From: Patescibacteria group bacterium
GTDB taxonomy: Bacteria > Patescibacteriota > Patescibacteriia > PEXW01
Length of the DNA: 64,000 bases
Direction: 5' to 3'
Assembly (NCBI GenBank): GCA_041665345.1
Contig: JBAYJA010000001.1
Location: forward strand, 73,206 to 137,205
The translations under genes were made by a program, and so were the position numbers. This document shows positions 18,884 through 52,309 of the stretch, one piece after another; position 1 is the stretch's first letter; each line of letters opens with the position of its first letter. The notes under the pieces were generated by a model. That model worked only from the letters and a program-made list of their open reading frames with translations. It was not told the DNA's origin and searched no databases.

Positions 18884-21800
18884 TTACTGCGTTTTCACAC
18901 TCACAGTGCCGGAACAACCATCTGGGTTCACCACTTTCATGGTGTAGGCCTTGTTTTTGGTAAGCAGCGTTCCATTGAGCGTAGCGGTGATTTGTCCGCT
19001 ATTTTTGAATTTAACAGCCGTTGGCACGCCGCCAATACTCACGACCACGTTCCGGTCAAAGTTTTTACCCGTGATTGTCAGTACAGCCTTCGCGTTTGTC
19101 GTTGCAAGTTTCCCAGTGACTTTCAGAGAGGCTGGTTTGAGAACCTTGAGACGCACTGCGGTGCCAGCAATGCTAATGCGTGCGCTGCTCTCATTGAGAC
19201 TGGTGGGGGTAAATTTTCCCTTGCTAAAGCCGTAGACCTTTAGGCTGTTCTTCCCTCGGTTCTGTACCAGGACGGTGAGGCTGGCAACACCCGCCTGCTG
19301 CGCTTCCAGCGTGGTGACCCGAACCGTACTGTTCGATTTTGCGCCAGTGTCTACGGCGTATGATGCAAATTTTTTCATTGCATCAAAGACGAGCACTTTG
19401 TTCTTCCCTGTTGACTGACTGGTCACAATATCACTCTTGCCGTCTTTGGTGATATCCGCCAACAGTAGATTAATGGCGCCATTGTTCTTAAACGGGGCTA
19501 GCGTTTTGTACAACTTTCCACTGAGGGTGAATACTTTCACGCTGCTCGTGCCTTTCTTCAGATTCTCACTTGGGGAGACGAAGATGAGCTGACCTGTTTT
19601 CCCACCAAAGTTCGTGGTTGCAACATTCAGCGCAGTCCCAGCAAAGGCGGTAATGGTCTTTGCTTTCTTGCCTGTCCCAATGGTGAATTTCCCTTTGTTC
19701 TTCCCGGTGCCCACGCTCACCGCAGTGTTGGCTTTCGCTTTCCCGTTGGAGGTTGGGCTCCACTTGGAGAAGTGGTCACTGGTGACGGTCAACGTGTTAT
19801 TCGTAGCATCTTGCGTGGCATTTGATGGGGTTTTCCACGTATTCGTGGTGTCGTCAAAGTAGCGGGGGAGTAAGGCGCTTTCATCAACGCCCGCACCCTC
19901 CAGCATTTTGTCCGTGTACTTGAAGGTGATCGTGACGTTCGAATTGAACTTCGTGATCTCCGCCCCGGTTGTAGCATTCGTCGCTTTGAAGTCGTACCCG
20001 TACCAGGCGGGTTTCGCATCTGCCTGGCTCATCAAATTGGCTGTTGGCGTTGCCGTGATGGTGACATTCCCACTCGTCGCGAAGGCAGAAGCGCCAGCGA
20101 CCACGGTGGTACCATCTTCCAGGGTCATGGAGAATGCTTGGGTCGCATCTGTGGTTTGTGAAACTGGATTGGGGATGCGGAAGTTCGCATTCTTTGACAG
20201 GACGAAGTTCTGCGTAATGGCTTTTTGCGTGCCGTCGACGACAATGGTCACCTCTTCGCTGCGGAAGAAGTCATTGCCAGCCGGAGCATCACAGCCAATG
20301 TGCCACACACCCTTGGAAACGTTGATTTCGTACTTCCCAGCTTGGACTTGCCCACCGGAGAAGTTCCCAGATTCCTCCCAGCCGTGGCACCAACCAAACT
20401 GGCCACCCCCCACAACCTTCCCGGTGATTTTGGCGTCTGCTTGGCGGAGGGCGAAGGTGAGATTCGCAGTTCTCGCACTCCCGCGGAAATCAACCGTTTG
20501 CGCTTGGGCAGGCATCCAGGGCGAACCCGGCGGGGGATTCACGCGTACTTCGTACAGGTGCCCGCTTAGAGTCGAAAGCGTCGCAACGCCTTTCGCATTC
20601 GTCATGGTGTTCGTGTGCAGGACGTTTTTAAAGTCCTCTGGTTTTGGCCCACTTCCCATGACTTGATTTCCTTGATCAGTGCTTTCACCTTTCACTTTGC
20701 CCTTAAAGAAAGACGCACCGGTGAGACCGCTTTCCCCACCAGCTGGCGGAGCGAAATCTCTACACATTTTTTCATTTTCCGGTTTTGAGCAGACCGCCTT
20801 GCACTCCGCTTCGGATTTGCAACCACCGGGGCCGGTCTGCGGGCCACTTGGGCCTTTGTCTGGTCCTTTAAATTTTCCACACTCCGCTTGGTTCGTCGGC
20901 ACCATGCAAAATTTCACACAGCTACCCACGTTTTTGCAACCACCTGGGCCAGTGGAAATGTCAGGCAGCTTCATTGCCTCACACTTCTTAATTTGCGCTG
21001 CGTCCTTCTTTTGGTAGGCTTTCATGCACACCTCAAATGCATCACCTTCTTTCCCATTCTTGTCCTTAAACTGGGCAGCGCCAAGATCCTTCGGGCCGTT
21101 GTTGGAACCACCTTGGTCTCCGGGTTTCCCAAAGAGTTCAATTTCGTTTCCCGCGTCAGCAAATGCCTGCACAGGGGCGCCGGTGGGATCTACCACAGAA
21201 ATGTTGATTTTTGCATCACCAACCAGAGCGGTAATGTTCTTCACCACATTCTCACCTGCGTGCACTTCAACCTTGTCTTGGCCTTGGTTCGTGTTCAGCA
21301 AGCCCGTACCGTCACTGAAGTGGTAGTTAAACTGGTAGGTACCAGCCACCACTGAGACTTTGTAACTGCAATCCGACATGAATTGCACGCCTCGGCCGCC
21401 TTTTTCCGTGCTATTCACAAAGATATCGCCGAAGCTGAACTGACCAGCCGGTGGGGTGCAGGTCGTTAGCGGAATGCCATTCTGGTCCACCAGCGCGCCG
21501 TAGATGGAGGAGTTGTTCTTGACGACCCGAAGCGTTGCGGTGCTTGTGCTGTCTGCAACCACGGAGACGGTCGTGGCTTCTGCCATGGAGTACTCAGCCT
21601 CGGGTGGCAGGTTAATACCTAGTTTGACCAAGGAGAAGACGGAGGACGGCATTTTAATGGTTGCGTGCCCATCTTGCATCAGCGGGCCGCCAAAGTTCTG
21701 GCCAGGGCCAAATTGGTCCTCACCGGCTTTTTGTGCGTACACGTAGCCATTCAGGCCGGTCGCCAAGGTGCCGTCTTCCTTCATCACGCTCACGAGGATA

Positions 21801-22798
21801 GTGGCATCGGCTTTTACGATTGTAATGTCGCCAAAGCCAAATGCGGAGGTGTCGGTATCGAGTGTCGTCTCCAGAGGCTTCCCATTGTAGACGTAGGATG
21901 GTAAACCAGCATCTTCAGGTCGCTGGTAATTGTCCACGTTCAAATTGCAGCGCCCGGCAAGGATTGCAAGATCAAAGGTGCCATCCGCACCTGAGGTGGC
22001 ATTGCCGTTGACCCCCGGCTGTGGGCCATTCTGGGCTCCAGACGCACCCGGAGTCATGCAGAATGCATTCATACGAATTCCCGAGACAGGCGTACCACTT
22101 CCATCAATCAGCCGACCGGTGAGATGCGCGGTCTTTGCTTTCACCACGAAGTTTGCGGTGATGGTTTGGCCATCAGCAATGACCACTGCGGTTTGCGGGG
22201 CAGACAAGGTTTGATCTGGGCTCCAGAAGCCAAGGTTAAAAGATCCCGCTGGTACGCGCATGGTGTAGCTGCCGTCCGTCACGCGGGCATTGCCACCTCC
22301 ACCCGGGCCGCTCGTTGACCAAGCGTTGATATTTGCATCCGTAATCGCTACCCCGTCCTTCGTGACGGATCCGGTGATTGTGGCCGTTGCTTTGGTCACT
22401 TGGAAATTGAGTGTACGACTTTCTGTTGTTGCATCAGCACTGAATGCAATATCCGGGATTTGCTCATTGAACGTCCAGTCAGTAGCGGAGTTTGTGTCAA
22501 AGTTTGCCCCGTACAATGATCCTGCAGGCAGGAAGACACTAAAATTTCCGGAAGCGTCGGTTGTGGCGTCGCCACCCCCAAAACCCGTTTGGGTTTTTGG
22601 CCAGAAGTGCAGTAGTGCACCGGCAACTGGGGTGGTGGTTCCTTTGTACACCACCGTTCCGGTAATGTTCTTTGGTCGTTCTTCGGCTCGGGCGGAAAAG
22701 GTGTTGAAGACATTTCCCCCCAGCGGACCAGCGAGGGTGATGAGCACTGTCAGCATACCTACGCTGGCACGGACTATCCGAAACGTTGACTTCTTCAT
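18884..22798 (-). CDS. Giant secreted/surface protein of about 1300 aa with a signal peptide, repeated beta-sandwich-like domains, duplicated Cys-rich modules and a C-terminal IPT/TIG-like domain.
   Basis: N-terminus MKKSTFRIVRASVGMLTVLITLAGP. Two GPGGCK...C...C...EC modules. FG-GAP-like DITKDGKSDIV. A C-terminal Ig-like fold. Start chosen at MKKST. Confidence 0.8.
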   Translation of the reverse strand: MKKSTFRIVRASVGMLTVLITLAGPLGGNVFNTFSARAEERPKNITGTVVYKGTTTPVAGALLHFWPKTQTGFGGGDATTDASGNFSVFLPAGSLYGANFDTNSATDWTFNEQIPDIAFSADATTESRTLNFQVTKATATITGSVTKDGVAITDANINAWSTSGPGGGGNARVTDGSYTMRVPAGSFNLGFWSPDQTLSAPQTAVVIADGQTITANFVVKAKTAHLTGRLIDGSGTPVSGIRMNAFCMTPGASGAQNGPQPGVNGNATSGADGTFDLAILAGRCNLNVDNYQRPEDAGLPSYVYNGKPLETTLDTDTSAFGFGDITIVKADATILVSVMKEDGTLATGLNGYVYAQKAGEDQFGPGQNFGGPLMQDGHATIKMPSSVFSLVKLGINLPPEAEYSMAEATTVSVVADSTSTATLRVVKNNSSIYGALVDQNGIPLTTCTPPAGQFSFGDIFVNSTEKGGRGVQFMSDCSYKVSVVAGTYQFNYHFSDGTGLLNTNQGQDKVEVHAGENVVKNITALVGDAKINISVVDPTGAPVQAFADAGNEIELFGKPGDQGGSNNGPKDLGAAQFKDKNGKEGDAFEVCMKAYQKKDAAQIKKCEAMKLPDISTGPGGCKNVGSCVKFCMVPTNQAECGKFKGPDKGPSGPQTGPGGCKSEAECKAVCSKPENEKMCRDFAPPAGGESGLTGASFFKGKVKGESTDQGNQVMGSGPKPEDFKNVLHTNTMTNAKGVATLSTLSGHLYEVRVNPPPGSPWMPAQAQTVDFRGSARTANLTFALRQADAKITGKVVGGGQFGWCHGWEESGNFSGGQVQAGKYEINVSKGVWHIGCDAPAGNDFFRSEEVTIVVDGTQKAITQNFVLSKNANFRIPNPVSQTTDATQAFSMTLEDGTTVVAGASAFATSGNVTITATPTANLMSQADAKPAWYGYDFKATNATTGAEITKFNSNVTITFKYTDKMLEGAGVDESALLPRYFDDTTNTWKTPSNATQDATNNTLTVTSDHFSKWSPTSNGKAKANTAVSVGTGKNKGKFTIGTGKKAKTITAFAGTALNVATTNFGGKTGQLIFVSPSENLKKGTSSVKVFTLSGKLYKTLAPFKNNGAINLLLADITKDGKSDIVTSQSTGKNKVLVFDAMKKFASYAVDTGAKSNSTVRVTTLEAQQAGVASLTVLVQNRGKNSLKVYGFSKGKFTPTSLNESSARISIAGTAVRLKVLKPASLKVTGKLATTNAKAVLTITGKNFDRNVVVSIGGVPTAVKFKNSGQITATLNGTLLTKNKAYTMKVVNPDGCSGTVSVKTQ

Positions 22799-23038
22799 AC
22801 AGAAGGAAGAGTTAAGGAGAAACGAAAAACCGACCGCCGACAAACGATCGGAAAAAAAGTGAAGAAATTTGGGCGAAGTCACTCATGGAGTAGCCGACAA
22901 GCAAACGACCTTGAGGACTGAAAAGTGATTATACTATACCAAACTCCTACCTGAGTAGGCAAATGAAGGATCAAGACTATCCGAAACCTCAACCTTCTGC
23001 GTTGTCAGTTGTTCGTCGTGCGTTGTCTGTTGTTTACC

Positions 23039-27606: not shown

Positions 27607-27699
27607 ACGTGGATTTGAGTGTACGAATTTTACCTGTACTTGTCAAGGCGAGCCTATCATCGTACCCTAGAGAGAGAATCGAAACTAAGCCAAAAAGGT

Positions 27700-28782
27700 A
27701 TGTATAAACCCACTGGGTTCATCGCCCTCCCCACCCTGGGTCTGCTCATTCTTGTAGCAGCCGGCATTGCTTTTGCCTCCTGGTGGTTTGCGGGCAGGGA
27801 AGAAGCAGTAGCGCCAACCATTTCCAATTTTACGGAGTGCGCGGCAGCCGGGAATCCAGTGATGGAAAGTTACCCCCGCCAGTGTAATGCGAATGGCCAG
27901 AATTTTGTGGAGGTGATTGTGAATACGAATGCAGTGGTGAATGAGAATGTGCCCGGCGAAGCCGGGTCCGGCTCCGCCGGAAATGTTGGAGTGAACAGTA
28001 ATACCAACGCTGCGACGAACACGAATGTCGCGGTGAATGGAAATACAAATATTGTTGCAGATCCAACCGCGGGGTGGAAGACGTACACGAGTACGACGCA
28101 CGGTTTTTCGCTGAAATACCCAACAACAATGCGTGTCTTGGAAGTGAACGAAACGAATGGGATTATTCTTCGTGTTGGGGTCGCTGGTAGTTCTAATGGA
28201 GATAATATTTTAATTTATAATAAAAGTGCTAATTCTGGTATACCGTATAGTACGGTTAAAACTGGGAATGGTAGAACGTTTGTCATTTCCCATGTTGGAA
28301 CTGAGGCTGATCTAATCCTCTCCACCTTCACTATCCTTGATGCGACTAAAAATTGGAACGAGTTTACAAATAAACCCTGGGGTTTTTCCTTCAAGTACCC
28401 GAAAGAGTGGAAAGTATTGCAAAATTCTATCCAGGCAATTGATACAATGGGGCTGCCGGAAAACGTACTGAAGATCGGGGCAAGTCCACGGCCTATATTC
28501 GTATTGTATGTCGATCCAATGGGTTGGGGGGTTGGAAATGTGCACTATGCAATGACGGTAAAAAAGCAAAACGACAAATTTATCATTGTTGAAGGAAAAC
28601 CTACTGGTGCAAAAACAGGGGAATTTGGGTTAAGTGAATACTATTCAGTAAGTGTCAGGCAAGAAAATGCAGAAAATCCTCGAATATACATTAGCTTTCA
28701 TTCAGCAATAAAAGCTGAAGAATCTGCTGAATTTAATTCCTTGGTAAGACAAATTATTTCAACCTTTACTTTCACAAAGTAA
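27700..28782 (+). CDS. Membrane-anchored hypothetical protein with an Asn-rich linker and duplicated DPTAGWKTYT..YP modules; tandem paralog of the next gene.
   Basis: TM helix IALPTLGLLILVAAGIAF, linker NTNAVVNEN...NSNTNAATNTNVAVNGNTN, repeats DPTAGWKTYTSTTHGFSLKYP and KPWGFSFKYPKEW. The C-terminal half is markedly AT-richer. Confidence 0.55.
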   Translation: MYKPTGFIALPTLGLLILVAAGIAFASWWFAGREEAVAPTISNFTECAAAGNPVMESYPRQCNANGQNFVEVIVNTNAVVNENVPGEAGSGSAGNVGVNSNTNAATNTNVAVNGNTNIVADPTAGWKTYTSTTHGFSLKYPTTMRVLEVNETNGIILRVGVAGSSNGDNILIYNKSANSGIPYSTVKTGNGRTFVISHVGTEADLILSTFTILDATKNWNEFTNKPWGFSFKYPKEWKVLQNSIQAIDTMGLPENVLKIGASPRPIFVLYVDPMGWGVGNVHYAMTVKKQNDKFIIVEGKPTGAKTGEFGLSEYYSVSVRQENAENPRIYISFHSAIKAEESAEFNSLVRQIISTFTFTK

Positions 28783-28786
28783 GTAT

Positions 28787-30004
28787 ATGCATAACCACCC
28801 CAAAGGTTTTCTCCCCATCGCGGTGGTCCTGGTTGCAGTTGTTGCCGCACTGGTTGTTGCCGGTGCGTCGTACTGGTACACCAAGGATAAAGCTGAGGAA
28901 GTAGTGAATACCAATACTGCCGTCCTTACCAATACGAACACGGTGAATGAGAATGTGAATGTTGCAGTGAATAGCAACGTCAATGCGACGAACACGAATG
29001 CGGCCGTGAATAACAACACGAATGCCGCTAACGGAACAAGTAAAACGTATACGTCAGCTACACGGGGTATCTCTTTCACCTACGCGCCAACATACGCTGA
29101 CTACAAGATTTTAGTGAAAGAAACTTCAAGTATGCTCTATGTCTACACTGAGGACATGAAACCCGAAGCCGGTCAGTTTGTTCAGTGGTTTACAAAAACA
29201 GCGTCGACCCCACTGAAGTCCGCAATTGAGCAACAGTTTTTGAAAGGCTACTCGTCCGCAGATTGCTTCGTTATCACGCCTGATACATACTCTGCTTCCA
29301 AGATGGGGTCAGGTTGGAACACTGCACGCATTGCGTACCCGCCCGCAGCGGTTAACGCGGAAAATCCATGGGTCGGCGCTGAGAAGTGTCCAAAGGTATA
29401 TACTGCGAGTAATGGTCTAAGTTACTTTGCGGAGGACAAGGATGATCCAACAAAGTTTTTCTTCTTTAGTATTGGGCAGTACATGATCCCCGCTGGGTCC
29501 GCCACGGTTGGTGAAAAAGGCTGGGAGGAAACGGTCACAATTGATCCAACGGTGGGGTGGAAGACGTATACGAATATGTCCTACGGGTACTCAATAAAAT
29601 ACCCAGCTGACTGGATTTTGGATATAGCATCAATTAGCTCTGGGGATTTGTATATTCTCACTAAGGAACGACAAGAAAAGTTAGACGCGAAAAAAATGAT
29701 TAGAGTTATGGACATTGGGGTCAAGGTATACACATCGGCATCAGACTTACCAAACAATTCAGTAAAGAAGCTAGGCTTTGAGGATTGGATTGATCAAGAG
29801 GCTGACTCATATGGTTTTATCAAACGCAAATCGATCACCCTGGATGGGGTTGTAGGCTATCAAGGCGTAGGCTCTGGTGATGGTGCTTCGTACCTAATTT
29901 TTATACAAAAAAGCGGGAGGATATATGAAATCCAGACCGGTGATACGCAATCTCCTTCACAAATTGAGCAGCTGGTGATAAATTCATTTATTTTTACGGA
30001 GTAG
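28787..30004 (+). CDS. Membrane-anchored hypothetical protein, paralog of 27700..28782.
   Basis: TM helix LPIAVVLVAVVAALVVAG, linker NTNTAVLTNTNTVNENVNVAVNSNVNATNTNAAVNNNTN, modules GTSKTYTSATRGISFTYAP and DPTVGWKTYTNMSYGYSIKYPADW. Confidence 0.55.
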   Translation: MHNHPKGFLPIAVVLVAVVAALVVAGASYWYTKDKAEEVVNTNTAVLTNTNTVNENVNVAVNSNVNATNTNAAVNNNTNAANGTSKTYTSATRGISFTYAPTYADYKILVKETSSMLYVYTEDMKPEAGQFVQWFTKTASTPLKSAIEQQFLKGYSSADCFVITPDTYSASKMGSGWNTARIAYPPAAVNAENPWVGAEKCPKVYTASNGLSYFAEDKDDPTKFFFFSIGQYMIPAGSATVGEKGWEETVTIDPTVGWKTYTNMSYGYSIKYPADWILDIASISSGDLYILTKERQEKLDAKKMIRVMDIGVKVYTSASDLPNNSVKKLGFEDWIDQEADSYGFIKRKSITLDGVVGYQGVGSGDGASYLIFIQKSGRIYEIQTGDTQSPSQIEQLVINSFIFTE

Positions 30005-48900: not shown

Positions 48901-49485
48901 TTAAACTGGCTCACCAGCAACAATCCATTCCGGATCTTTCAGTCGTCCGAATTTGATCTCCAACTTTGGTGGCAATTTCCACTCATTGCAAAGTTTTTCT
49001 ATGACGTGATCCCAAATGGCCGGCACCTTCATTTCCGGGTTGAGCGCTTGCCACTCTCCAAAACGGCAGGCGAAGAGGCCATCCGAACGCGTTTCGACTC
49101 GGAACGCGTGGTACCTTGGCGTCTTATGTAGTTGACTATCAGTCGTGCCAACCCACCCATGACGGTCAAGGGCTTTCTGGTAGCAGGAGGGACACGTTTG
49201 GTGAAGTTCGGAGTAGGTGTCGAATCTGTAGCATGAATTTTCGTACCCGCAGCTTTCCTCTCGCACACCTTCCAGGAGGATCAGCTGACCTTCTCCTTTA
49301 AAAATTTCGTGGCATTCTGTGCACCAGAAGAGCTGTTTACGTTTGAACTCTTTGTCAAAGTGGGATCGCCGTGCCTGGTTGTACTCGTTGATGGTCTGCG
49401 TCAGAGCATCTTCTGCTTGTTCAAGAAGCTGGGATTGCGTTCTGGCTTGTTCCCGCAAAACCTGTAGATTCTCAAGGTTTTCCAT
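48901..49485 (-). CDS. Hypothetical protein with two CxxC pairs (zinc-ribbon-like).
   Basis: CTEC...CPSC plus additional Cys residues. Confidence 0.45.
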   Translation of the reverse strand: MENLENLQVLREQARTQSQLLEQAEDALTQTINEYNQARRSHFDKEFKRKQLFWCTECHEIFKGEGQLILLEGVREESCGYENSCYRFDTYSELHQTCPSCYQKALDRHGWVGTTDSQLHKTPRYHAFRVETRSDGLFACRFGEWQALNPEMKVPAIWDHVIEKLCNEWKLPPKLEIKFGRLKDPEWIVAGEPV

Positions 49486-49548: not shown

Positions 49549-49587
49549 GCAAGCAAAAAGAAAACGCCTCTCCGGTAGGGGAGGCGT
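49549..49587 (-). terminator. Rho-independent terminator for 49613..50122.
   Basis: Minus strand reads ACGCCTCCCC-TACC-GGAGAGGCGT followed by TTTCTTTTTG. Confidence 0.55.
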
Positions 49588-49612
49588 CATTAGGAAGAGC
49601 TTGTGTGATTTT

Positions 49613-50122
49613 TTACTGCTGCGGTTCTTTCGGTTTGCCGAATATGGCCACATCTTTCAGTCTCCAAAGGAGGGGGCTGGTCCTTGAGCAGTAGCTTGTA
49701 CCAAGAATCTTGTCGTCAGGGTTCAGGCGCCCATCATCGGGTAGTGATAATTGCGCCCCATCCTTTGTGCCCCACCCAGCTGCAGTTTCTTCATACGCGT
49801 AGACAAGGTACGTTTCACCTTCTATGAAATCATAACCGTCGCATGAGCATCGGTTTTCAACCGTATGCAACGTCATGCTGACACGCGCATTGCCCTTCCA
49901 GTAGGCACCTACTTGGAAGTGTACAATGGTGCGTGGTTCATCACAGCCAATCCCAGTTGAGTCATCGACGTAGATAACCTTCGTGACTTTGCCGGCAAAG
50001 ATTACGTCAGCGTCCTTGTACGATTCCTGAGCAGACGGAGGTATGCATGAGCACGCCTGCGCAGTGAGCGGGAAGGCAAGAAGCACCAGCATCAAACCTA
50101 TAAGTACCTTTTTCATCTTCAC
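49613..50122 (-). CDS. Secreted Cys-rich protein with a TIMP/NTR-like N-terminal module; mature N-terminus predicted to be CSC.
   Basis: Signal peptide MKMKKVLIGLMLVLLAFPLTAQA. The following CSCIPPSAQESYKDADVIFAGKVTKV resembles the TIMP N-terminus [24 protein letters not shown]. Confidence 0.55.
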   Translation of the reverse strand: MKMKKVLIGLMLVLLAFPLTAQACSCIPPSAQESYKDADVIFAGKVTKVIYVDDSTGIGCDEPRTIVHFQVGAYWKGNARVSMTLHTVENRCSCDGYDFIEGETYLVYAYEETAAGWGTKDGAQLSLPDDGRLNPDDKILGTSYCSRTSPLLWRLKDVAIFGKPKEPQQ

Positions 50123-50206
50123 TCCTCTTGTTTTTGGTGGTTCACCTTTTTTGGATTTGCATAGCTTAACAAGATGCCCGAGTATACGTCAAGCATAGGT
50201 TTTGAG

Positions 50207-50238
50207 AAAAGCGCCTTTCCGGTTGGAAAGGCGCTTTT
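50207..50238. terminator. Bidirectional rho-independent terminator.
   Basis: AAAAGCGCCTTTCC-GGTT-GGAAAGGCGCTTTT. Confidence 0.65.
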
Positions 50239-50296
50239 GAAAAGTACGCTGGGTTAACATGCCGGACGTCCGGAGCAGCTTTCAGTGAAAGAACTG

Positions 50297-50692: not shown

Positions 50693-52309
50693 TTACCCGC
50701 GTTCAATGGTCCGTGGAGGTTTGTCTGAAGTGTTGAAGCAGACTGCACCAATTTCCCGAATTTCGTTCGTCATGCGGCGGGAGATGGTTTTCATTACCTC
50801 CCAGGGAATTTCTGCGGCCTGGGCAGTGAACCCATTCACGCTCCAGAATGCCCAGCACTCCGCGACAAGTCCGAAATCTGCGCCGTCACCTTTCGTGCAC
50901 TTGGTGACTGAGTGGGTAAGAAAAACACCGGCCTGCCAGATGCTTTCATACAGCCCAGCTTTTCGGATTTCTTCCATGAAGATATCATCAAGGACTCGGG
51001 CGATACCCAGTTTGTCTTTTGTGATATCACCTTCTATGCGAAGAATGAGGCCAGGACCCGGGAATGGATGCCGGAGCAGGAGTGCTTCAGGCACGCCCAC
51101 TGCACGGCCGATGTTCCGGCCCGTGTCCTTCACCTGGTCAGCGAGTGGGGTGACTTCGGGTACGGAGAATTGCAAGCCCACATTGTGGTGCTGCTTGATA
51201 CGCGCCTTGGTGGCGCCGCTGTCGTAGCCTTCACCGCTCTCGGAAATGTCGGTGTAGAGCGTGCCCTGCGCAATAACGTTGGCACGCCAGCGCTCTGCCT
51301 CTGCTTCGAGCACTGCTTTGTACACATTCCGCATCGCCTCCCGCTTCTTTTCCATTGTGGTGACACCTTTGAGTGCCTCCAGAAATTGCTCGGTTGCATC
51401 TACAACCGTCAGTTGGAGCCAAGGTTGCTGGCCGAAAAACTCGCGGACGTGGGCTTCGTCATCTGGACGGTCGATACCCTTGATGTAGACACCAACAATC
51501 TGGATTGGGAGGGTCGCTCGTATCCGGGCAGCTTTCAGCAAGTATGCCACTGTGGAAGAGTCGGTTCCACCCGAGAGTGCAAGGAGAATTATTTTCCCAG
51601 CCAGCGTTTGGGCGAGGTGTGCAATTTTTTCCTGACTGACATCGCCGGCCGGGAACGTGTCCTTCGCCCCACAGATGGTGAAGCAGAAGTTTTCAAAAAG
51701 TTCCAGCCCATGTTCCGTGTCGCTGACCTCCGGGTGAAACTGGACGCCCCAGAGGTGCTGGTGGTGGCCGGCGGCCACGGGTGCGTGCTCGGTGGATCCC
51801 AGAATTTCCAAGTCCGGGTGAGGGAGAATTCGATCGCCGTGGCTCTCCAGCACCTGGAAACCAGTGCTGTACGTTATGCCCCCAATGAGTGGCGAGCTAT
51901 GGTCGGCAATGGTCAGTAGGTGGACGCCGAATTCCCGTTTGTCTGCTGGTTGTACTTGCACGCCGAGGTGCTGCGCCCAGAGTTGGAAGCCCAAGCAAAT
52001 ACCGAAGACCGGAATCCCGAGGTCGAAGATTGCCGCATCGAACGGCGGGGGATCGGTGTGCACTGAAGCAGGGCCGCCGGAGAGAATGATGCCGATAGGC
52101 TTGAGTAAGCGGACGTCATTGGCCGTGACGCGGGCTGGATCAGCCACGAGGCAGAAAACGCCAAGCTCATCGAGTTTTTGCTTGATGAGGTGGTCGAACT
52201 GACTGCCGAGTGCAAAAAGGAGGAAGACTTCCTGAGTGCGCCGAATGCCCATTTCTTTGGCAATTTCCCCTAAGGTTTCCGGAGTGACCTGGGTGAGTGT
52301 GCTAATCAT
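50693..52309 (-). CDS. guaA: GMP synthase (glutamine-hydrolysing).
   Basis: Type-1 glutamine amidotransferase region (GICLGFQ), PP-loop SGGTDSS, and a C-terminal dimerisation domain. Confidence 0.95.
   Translation of the reverse strand: MISTLTQVTPETLGEIAKEMGIRRTQEVFLLFALGSQFDHLIKQKLDELGVFCLVADPARVTANDVRLLKPIGIILSGGPASVHTDPPPFDAAIFDLGIPVFGICLGFQLWAQHLGVQVQPADKREFGVHLLTIADHSSPLIGGITYSTGFQVLESHGDRILPHPDLEILGSTEHAPVAAGHHQHLWGVQFHPEVSDTEHGLELFENFCFTICGAKDTFPAGDVSQEKIAHLAQTLAGKIILLALSGGTDSSTVAYLLKAARIRATLPIQIVGVYIKGIDRPDDEAHVREFFGQQPWLQLTVVDATEQFLEALKGVTTMEKKREAMRNVYKAVLEAEAERWRANVIAQGTLYTDISESGEGYDSGATKARIKQHHNVGLQFSVPEVTPLADQVKDTGRNIGRAVGVPEALLLRHPFPGPGLILRIEGDITKDKLGIARVLDDIFMEEIRKAGLYESIWQAGVFLTHSVTKCTKGDGADFGLVAECWAFWSVNGFTAQAAEIPWEVMKTISRRMTNEIREIGAVCFNTSDKPPRTIERG

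Follow-up and report, generated by a model that had tools for sequence, protein, structure and literature searches.

A predicted secreted protein of a Patescibacteria group bacterium related to the N-terminal domain of tissue inhibitors of metalloproteinases

Does a short gene of a Patescibacteria group bacterium, whose product appears to be exported and to begin its mature chain with Cys-Ser-Cys, encode a true relative of the animal tissue inhibitors of metalloproteinases (TIMPs), and could such a protein inhibit a metalloprotease? The gene lies on the minus strand of a 64,000-nucleotide stretch of contig JBAYJA010000001.1 (positions 73,206 to 137,205), the whole of which we analyzed and refer to as the window. 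Judged by profile comparisons, its product is a genuine but distant relative of the inhibitory N-terminal domain of TIMPs (N-TIMP). The open reading frame (ORF) listing gives 169 codons at 49613..50122 with a GTG start, and the frame and translation of the original prediction, MKKVLIGLMLVLLAFPLTAQA followed by CSCIPPSAQESYKDADVIFAGKVTKV..., were recovered exactly as written there. The ATG at 50116 is the likelier start, giving a protein of 167 amino acids, because a GAGGAG at 50122-50127 sits 5 nt upstream. This 167-residue product is identical over its full length (100%) to MFA6473354.1 (WCV85_00595, 'hypothetical protein [Patescibacteria group bacterium]'), which is encoded on a contig of 1,075,605 bp. 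Four close orthologues share 66-81% identity with it, and the ratio of nonsynonymous to synonymous substitution rates (dN/dS) against two of them is 0.21-0.23, indicating purifying selection. The gene is thus real and under selection.

49613..50116, minus strand: coding sequence of the TIMP-N-like secreted protein, 167 amino acids plus stop (ORF list, NCBI match, dN/dS)
50122, minus strand: alternative GTG start, adding two residues
50122..50127, minus strand: Shine-Dalgarno-like GAGGAG, read from the sequence
49616..50053, minus strand: mature chain, residues 22-167, predicted to be a single NTR / N-TIMP-like OB-fold domain (AlphaFold2, Foldseek, hhalign)

Homology to TIMPs and predicted fold

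Searches with the single sequence gave marginal evidence. The protein matches the Pfam TIMP profile (PF00965) with an E value of 5.8e-4 (20.1 bits) over profile positions 1-65 of 183, and in pairwise BLASTP the first 35 residues of the mature chain aligned with TIMP-2(1-102) (E 8e-5). Scans of the protein with NCBIfam and with PADLOC gave no match, and a word-indexed homologue search returned 7 relatives only. The family became visible by an exhaustive hidden Markov model (HMM) search covering 1.84 billion cluster representatives (50%-identity clusters), which yielded 14,301 representatives at E<=1e-3 and 3,775 at E<=1e-10. From this search we drew an alignment of 71 sequences, which served as the family profile (A2). 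When the profile was run against all PDB sequences with hmmsearch, the significant matches were TIMPs only, with TIMP-2 at E 1.2e-8, and there was no sequence-level match to non-TIMP NTR modules. The alignment with TIMP-2 spans Cys1 to Cys101 and lines up Cys1, Cys3, Cys72, and Cys101 with the family's four conserved cysteines. Comparison of A2 with TIMP-2(1-102) by hhalign gave a probability of 97.5% and an E value of 5.5e-12 over 97 columns. In the converse direction, Pfam TIMP is matched at E<=0.01 by 36 of the 71 A2 members (best 5e-10), its gathering score is passed by 4 out of 10 longer members (P0124, 35.2 bits; P0126, 31.2; P0087, 28.8; P0025, 26.6), and the match in relatives extends to about profile position 113 of 183. 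Identity to TIMPs in structural alignments is 13-19%. Taken together, these profile comparisons argue that the resemblance is homology and not chance. The original prediction had noted a TIMP-like N-terminus (CSC...ADVIFAGKV) and had quoted the start of TIMP-2 for comparison; the quotation agrees with PDB chain 1br9, and the likeness exceeds chance by pairwise, profile, and profile-profile comparison alike.

The predicted structure points in the same direction. AlphaFold2 reached a predicted local distance difference test score (pLDDT) of 75 with a shallow alignment, and 92.1 with the 71-sequence alignment, for which the predicted template-modelling score was 0.83. For both models, the first 24 Foldseek matches in the PDB were only TIMP-1, -2, and -3, agrin NtA, and the NTR domains of PCOLCE and meteorin. 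For the model with pLDDT 92.1, these 24 had Foldseek probabilities of 0.99-1.00 and template-modelling (TM) scores of 0.57-0.69 per N-TIMP length, and the best TM score normalised to N-TIMP length was 0.69-0.70 across the two models. Generic OB-fold proteins (SSB, RPA) ranked after the TIMP/NTR matches, at much weaker E values. The modelled chain has the NTR fold, that is, a five-stranded OB-fold barrel with flanking helices, so the check proposed with the original prediction, an AlphaFold model searched with Foldseek, gave a TIMP/NTR fold and not a non-OB one. By sequence profile and predicted fold, we assign the protein to a prokaryotic branch of the NTR / N-TIMP superfamily.

The mature N-terminus and the cysteines across the family

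In TIMPs, the mature chain begins with Cys1, whose free alpha-amino group and carbonyl group hold the catalytic zinc by chelation, and residue 2 (Ser or Thr) points into the S1' pocket. The corresponding features of the window protein are as follows.

50054..50116, minus strand: signal peptide, residues 1-21, with MKK, the hydrophobic core VLIGLMLVLLAFPL, and TAQA (sequence and family pattern)
50045..50053, minus strand: Cys22-Ser23-Cys24, putative mature residues 1-3, counterpart of the zinc-binding tip Cys1-Ser/Thr2-Cys3 of TIMPs
49841..49843, minus strand: Cys92 (mature residue 71), counterpart of TIMP-1 Cys70 and TIMP-2 Cys72, invariant in 271/271 sequences
49688..49690, minus strand: Cys143 (mature residue 122), counterpart of TIMP-1 Cys99 and TIMP-2 Cys101, invariant in 271/271 sequences
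49847..49945, minus strand: from Cys58 (49943-49945) to Cys90 (49847-49849), an additional pair of cysteines specific to the clade
49712..49783, minus strand: insertion of about 24 residues (approximately residues 112-135) between strand YLVYA and Cys143 (alignments A2 and A3, hhalign gap)

The c-region of the signal peptide, T-A-Q-A, is a classic small-x-Ala site for signal peptidase I and lies immediately before Cys1. The same pattern is found throughout the family: position -1 is Ala in 147/152 sequences (97%), position -3 is A, V, S, T, or G (Leu once in 152), Tyr, Phe, His, Trp, or Gln frequently occupies position -2, and CxC follows directly behind the signal peptide in about 150 of 156 relatives. 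The Ala at -1, the small residue at -3, and the aromatic residue, His, or Gln at -2 thus make this an A-x-A site for signal peptidase I, not a lipobox; the lipobox L-[ASTVI]-[GAS]-C is absent from the window protein, which has T-A-Q-A-C at this place. In the AlphaFold model, residues 2-14 form a helix and the folded domain begins at Cys22. We infer that signal peptidase I cuts at A21|C22, making Cys22 the first residue of the mature chain, in line with the earlier suggestion of a secreted protein whose signal peptide ends in AQA before CSC.

Conservation is concentrated in the parts that would matter for TIMP-like binding. CxC is present in 268/268 complete sequences and two later cysteines in 271/271. 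Mature residue 2 is Ser in 239/265 sequences (90%), as in the window protein (Ser23), and Thr in 8/265 (3%), and Pro is common at mature positions 5 and 6. Around the third family cysteine the sequence is S-A-S-C-G, where TIMP-2 has S-A-V-C-G. The medians for the third and fourth cysteines are mature positions 71 and 97, against 72 and 101 in TIMP-2; their counterparts in TIMP-1 we take to be positions 70 and 99. Given established structural knowledge of TIMPs bound to matrix metalloproteinases, the best-conserved family segments correspond to those forming the protease-binding ridge of TIMPs. The further cysteines of the window protein are residues 58, 90, 92, and 143, and two of the later cysteines to which the original prediction had drawn attention, Cys92 and Cys143, sit where the partners of TIMP Cys1 and Cys3 sit. 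Disulfides Cys22-Cys92 and Cys24-Cys143 are therefore likely by alignment with TIMPs.

This architecture is common. At least 3,775 clusters (E<=1e-10) share the signal peptide followed by CxC, many prokaryotic members already carry a precomputed PF00965 match, and UniRef names some Bacillaceae members 'Tissue inhibitor of metalloproteinase' (NCBI: hypothetical). The expectation that a TIMP-like module would be unusual in bacteria was consequently not borne out. The family is abundant in aerobic Bacillaceae and cyanobacteria and also occurs in Chloroflexota; a scan of viral contigs returned no relatives. In about two-thirds of the first 156 relatives, the precursor has a hydrophobic stretch beyond residue 60, which the alignment shows to be a C-terminal membrane anchor, and one relative is annotated by its source as LPXTG-anchored. 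Such C-terminal anchoring leaves the N-terminus free.

The window protein belongs to a clade that departs from this typical form in three respects, namely the lack of a membrane anchor, the insertion, and the extra cysteine pair. It has no C-terminal anchor (maximum 19-residue hydropathy 0.23), and the soluble subfamily to which it belongs is marked by the insertion of about 24 residues, which typical members and TIMP-2 lack. Cys58 and Cys90 co-occur in exactly five sequences, the window protein and its four close orthologues, and both are missing from the other 269. This co-occurrence suggests a clade-specific third disulfide, Cys58-Cys90, which is not at the positions of TIMP Cys13-Cys124.

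Proposed mechanism and competing explanations

On balance, we lean towards the view that the product is a soluble, Sec-exported single-domain N-TIMP homologue that acts extracellularly as a tight-binding inhibitor of a zinc metallopeptidase, a view that draws on sequence comparison and on the model. After export via Sec, signal peptidase I would cut behind Ala21 and leave Cys22 as the free N-terminal residue, and oxidation would form Cys22-Cys92, Cys24-Cys143, and additionally Cys58-Cys90. These disulfides would pin the segment C-S-C-I-P-P against the loop ...C-S-C92-D-G on the OB-fold barrel and so produce a rigid wedge. The wedge could then enter the active-site cleft of a zinc endopeptidase, as TIMPs do with metzincin zinc proteases, where the alpha-amino and carbonyl groups of Cys22 would chelate the zinc and Ser23 would face S1'. 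The target would probably be made by other cells, such as the host or competitors of an episymbiotic bacterium of the candidate phyla radiation (CPR), or would come from an unlinked locus. In one clade of relatives (P0119 and P0160-P0164, 654 amino acids; L005 6001-7965), a TIMP-like CxC domain (approximately residues 22-149) is joined to a complete serpin domain (residues 283-653; for P0119, Pfam Serpin E 4.6e-109 and the JGI name 'serpin B'). Two protease-inhibitor modules in one exported chain allow a Rosetta-stone type argument for an inhibitor role. An inhibitor function is plausible from sequence and predicted fold.

Several observations weigh against this interpretation. The window protein alone misses the Pfam TIMP gathering threshold (20.1 vs 23.1 bits), and phmmer with the single protein against PDB sequences gave noise and no TIMP match. 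It has no cysteine at the aligned position of TIMP-2 Cys13, so the third N-TIMP disulfide (Cys13-Cys124) is absent, and the C-terminal TIMP domain with its three further disulfides is wholly absent, the 146-residue mature chain being one domain. The protein is not a TIMP sensu stricto, having one domain, two of the three N-domain disulfides (as deduced from the alignment), and a single-sequence score under the Pfam threshold. In addition, many NTR modules (agrin NtA, PCOLCE, netrin C, C345C) do not inhibit proteases. Nor did the search for a protease partner, which the original prediction had recommended, produce one, either in the window or beside the relatives examined. Specifically, no HExxH motif occurs in the window ORFs (greedy longest non-overlapping, at least 90 amino acids), Pfam found no peptidase among ten secreted or large window proteins, no metallopeptidase is present in five annotated contexts of relatives (Neobacillus, Bacillus, Ca. 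Leptofilum, the serpin-fusion contig, and a CPR orthologue), and no peptidase is included in the 25 most frequent of the 80 families matched by 107 neighbour ORFs, which were drawn from 26 non-redundant metagenome loci. No family was seen more than twice in this neighbour census, and the TIMP-like family is thus without a conserved operon partner. Since no partner gene lies nearby, the target would be unlinked or made by other organisms. Finally, our search of open-access papers and bioRxiv turned up no description, experiment, or inhibition assay on the prokaryotic branch, the study of Listeria Tim being the one relevant paper that it returned; the branch may be described elsewhere.

The competing explanation that survives best, which we consider unlikely but take seriously, is that the protein is a non-inhibitory binding module of the NTR type, with a cell-wall or S-layer component, a polysaccharide, or a protein as its ligand, and that CxC and its disulfides are purely structural. 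Agrin NtA, which binds laminin, is a model for such a module. The structural searches would allow for this, as Foldseek also gives agrin NtA, PCOLCE, meteorin, and complement C345C with similar scores, and so would the lack of a linked protease partner and the tethering of typical members to the membrane or wall, which would suit an adhesin or scaffold too. However, it is well established that the first cysteine of non-inhibitory NTR modules is internal and not a free N-terminus, whereas in this family the cysteine right behind the signal peptide is near-invariant. Moreover, TIMPs give the best sequence matches (TIMP-2, E 1.2e-8) and no further NTR protein is listed, conservation is highest in the segments of the TIMP reactive ridge, and the serpin fusion exists.

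A thiol or metal function, in which the invariant C-x-C...C...C would be kept reduced and bind Zn, Cu, or Fe or form a redox centre, seems improbable to us. All four cysteines are invariant, the two corresponding TIMP disulfides adjoin each other, and many CPR bacteria are anaerobes, for which it is uncertain whether disulfides form outside the cytoplasm. Against this, the family is abundant in the aerobic Bacillaceae and the cyanobacteria, as described above, and its cysteines align one to one with the disulfide-bonded cysteines of TIMP-2; we also found no His, Asp, or Met ligands, no known metal-site motifs, and no metal-binding match in Pfam or NCBIfam.

We give little credence to a lipoprotein, in which the cysteine at +1 would be lipidated after a signal peptidase II cut, blocking its alpha-amino group or thiol and excluding the TIMP mechanism. 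A cysteine at +1 is the hallmark of lipoproteins, and T-A-Q-A-C presumably fits the permissive PROSITE lipobox pattern PS51257. Across the relatives, though, the pattern is A-x-A and not L-[AS]-[GA]-C, with Leu at -3 in 1 of 152 and frequent Tyr, Phe, His, Trp, or Gln at -2; most relatives are already anchored at the C-terminus, and Cys1 has a conserved partner with which it would form a disulfide. Tim of Listeria monocytogenes, the only bacterial TIMP-like protein that has been studied, is itself a lipoprotein and so speaks for this alternative (PMC8235301). Least credible of all is a chance or convergent resemblance of a cysteine-rich secreted protein to TIMPs over some 35 residues, for although the single-sequence evidence is weak (20.1 bits in Pfam, no TIMP by phmmer against the PDB) and identity in structural alignments is low (13-19%), the profile match is significant over about 100 residues and not 35, the fold prediction is in independent agreement, relatives score above the Pfam cut-off, and the four cysteines are in register.

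The locus, related loci, and comparison with known systems

The TIMP-like gene looks monocistronic, because it has a weak promoter-like site, a hairpin upstream, and its own hairpin and U-tract downstream.

50181..50208, minus strand: sigma-70-like promoter candidate TTCTCA-16-TATACT upstream of the TIMP-like gene (consensus scan)
50207..50238, minus strand: strong perfect 14-bp hairpin that ends the upstream 117-amino-acid ORF and parts it from the TIMP-like gene
49553..49588, minus strand: intrinsic-terminator-like hairpin GACGCCUCCCC...GGAGAGGCGU then UUUUCUUUUU (U-tract), directly after the stop codon of the TIMP-like gene

The promoter scan gave 1 site against 0.9 expected by chance, which is weak evidence, and the upstream hairpin shares 2 nt with this candidate; the region around that hairpin (50190-50296, minus strand) folds as RNA at -36.6 kcal/mol (z -4.97). 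The downstream hairpin folds at -21.7 kcal/mol (z -2.85) and was not flagged by a consensus terminator scanner. Neighbours in the window are guaA (50693-52309), the 117-amino-acid ORF, a 194-amino-acid cysteine-rich cytoplasmic protein, a DinB-family protein, phosphoenolpyruvate (PEP) synthase, and RecQ. The 194-amino-acid protein (48901-49485, minus strand) has an N-terminal coiled-coil-like stretch, CxxC...CxxC, and no Pfam match; its gene adjoins the TIMP-like gene downstream in both orthologous loci, with the terminator hairpin between them. Two orthologues keep the order of TIMP-like gene, 195-amino-acid cysteine-rich protein, and PEP synthase. A locus search with the five orthologues gave one genome locus. 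The 5-kb contig CAZBMC010000063.1 (L004), labelled 'uncultured Gammaproteobacteria bacterium', has the gene order of the Patescibacteria window. Identity between the window and this contig is 96% for PEP synthase, 69-70% for the TIMP-like protein, and 49% for the 194-amino-acid neighbour. Because of the shared gene order and the 96% identical PEP synthase, the Gammaproteobacteria label of this metagenome-assembled genome is probably a binning error. The TIMP-like protein appears to diverge relatively fast under purifying selection, which fits, but does not prove, an extracellular interaction protein.

Elsewhere in the window, the 1332-amino-acid product of a gene at 18884-22882 (minus strand) combines a hydrophobic segment at its N-terminus with a CarboxypepD_reg-like domain and, at its C-terminus, an IPT/TIG domain; it is probably a large protein of the CPR cell surface. 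The adjacent genes 27619-28782 and 28787-30004 (both plus strand) carry weak PsbP_2-like domains, the first at the Pfam cut-off and the second above it; the product of the second has an N-terminal hydrophobic segment, and the pair looks tandem.

Among the relatives, a gene for an extracytoplasmic function (ECF) sigma-70 factor accompanies the TIMP-like gene in three loci. In Ca. Leptofilum and in the serpin-fusion contig it follows immediately and on the same strand, whereas in a Bacillus locus it is 1.6 kb downstream (6887-7435 in L002, 8059-8559 in L005, and 8192-8740 in L006). We considered it as a family-wide link, as it was present in 2-3 of the first 6 contexts, and dropped it when it did not recur in the 26-locus census; the association may be lineage-specific or coincidental. 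Two further candidates were discarded, namely the one HExxH ORF adjoining a TIMP-like gene (in L025), considered as a protease partner and found to be a serine beta-lactamase-family protein, and an apparent 1164-amino-acid 'fusion' in L035, an ORF-calling artefact over a valyl-tRNA synthetase gene. Tandem TIMP-like genes with overlapping stop and start codons, a local duplication, occur in L016 (7998-8564 and 8561-9142) and also in L019. One relative of 330 amino acids (P0126) combines a strongly acidic N-terminus with a twin-arginine-like signal, RRGVL, ahead of ...ASACSC, which suggests export by the twin-arginine translocation pathway and possibly a haloarchaeal origin. Fusions of the TIMP-like domain to DUF6174 (PF19671) recur in cyanobacteria and Ca. 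Obscuribacterales (P0124, P0220, P0258, P0262, P0265, P0267, P0268, P0270, and P0271) and are uninformative as to function.

What the family could mean goes beyond this one locus. It retains the parts of TIMPs that touch the protease, that is, the Cys1-Ser-Cys3 tip, its two presumed disulfide partners, and the S-A-x-C-G loop. We entertain, tentatively and with some doubt, a wider proposal in which the prokaryotic CxC proteins are authentic zinc-metalloprotease inhibitors by the TIMP mechanism and form a widespread and ancient layer of extracellular protease control in bacteria, in which TIMP/NTR modules predate animals, and in which the anchorless, fast-evolving CPR version is a diffusible effector that neutralises metalloproteases of hosts or competitors. 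If metalloprotease inhibition is true, the family would be a new class of bacterial cell-surface defence or regulatory factors, a source of minimal N-TIMP scaffolds (approximately 125-145 residues) for engineering, and evidence on the origin of the NTR module. TIMPs are known from textbooks as animal proteins. A 2023 phylogenomic study placed the origin of the TIMP family in the eumetazoan ancestor (PMC10755359), two papers on TIMP evolution make no mention of prokaryotes, and the authors who described Listeria Tim reported that they had come across no bacterial TIMP-like proteins on record (PMC8235301). Databases already show the prokaryotic branch, which is experimentally uncharacterised; as a whole, it poses an under-appreciated and readily testable question. 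Within it, the window gene is ordinary; what makes it interesting is that a CPR bacterium with a reduced genome, which has to interact with other cells, carries a soluble variant.

Among known systems, the animal TIMPs (PF00965, MEROPS I35), with TIMP-2 as the best match, likewise have a signal peptide followed by Cys-Ser/Thr-Cys. They share with the family the ADV[IV]-type first strand, the [W/F]KG turn, S-A-x-C-G, the YL[VI] strand, L-C at the fourth cysteine, the OB-fold NTR barrel (predicted here), and third and fourth cysteines spaced like the partners of TIMP Cys1 and Cys3. The window protein differs in being prokaryotic, in lacking the C-terminal domain and Cys13-Cys124, and in having Cys58/Cys90 and the 24-residue insertion. 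Agrin NtA, PCOLCE, the netrin C-terminal domain, meteorin, and complement C345C have the same fold as predicted here; they occur inside or at the C-terminus of large animal proteins, lack a free N-terminal cysteine, and are mostly non-inhibitory. The serralysin inhibitors (MEROPS I38; APRin of Pseudomonas, Inh of Erwinia and Serratia) are small exported beta-barrels in which a free N-terminal residue reaches the catalytic zinc of a metzincin, and they work like the mechanism proposed here. They differ in their unrelated fold and sequence, in usually lying in the protease operon, and in having no CxC tip. A serralysin inhibitor has been described as interacting with its cognate metzincin in a TIMP-like fashion (PMC8235301).

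Listeria Tim, a TIMP-like lipoprotein paired with the metzincin Mtz, is, like the window protein, bacterial, exported, and predicted to have a TIMP-like fold, and it has been studied together with its metalloprotease (PMC8235301). It has the lipobox LTAC, its TIMP-like part begins only about 50 residues in and is set free by Mtz cleavage, its resemblance to TIMPs is structural only, and its gene lies immediately after that of the metzincin (PMC8235301). In contrast, and going by this description of Tim, the window protein has no adjacent protease, and shows homology to TIMPs at the sequence level and a signal peptidase I site before Cys1. Closest are the prokaryotic PF00965-type proteins, which the HMM assigns to the same family (relatives score 98-154 bits). 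In common with the window protein they have the signal peptide, C[ST]C, AVF[AS]GKV, WKG, ASCG, YLVYA, and the four invariant cysteines. Typical members have approximately 190 amino acids, a C-terminal transmembrane or LPXTG anchor, and SSADP, whereas the window protein has CDEPR, is predicted to be soluble, carries the insertion and six cysteines, and is only 24-46% identical to them. It is thus a new divergent member of the prokaryotic TIMP-like family, distinguished by its soluble form, its insertion, and its extra cysteine pair.

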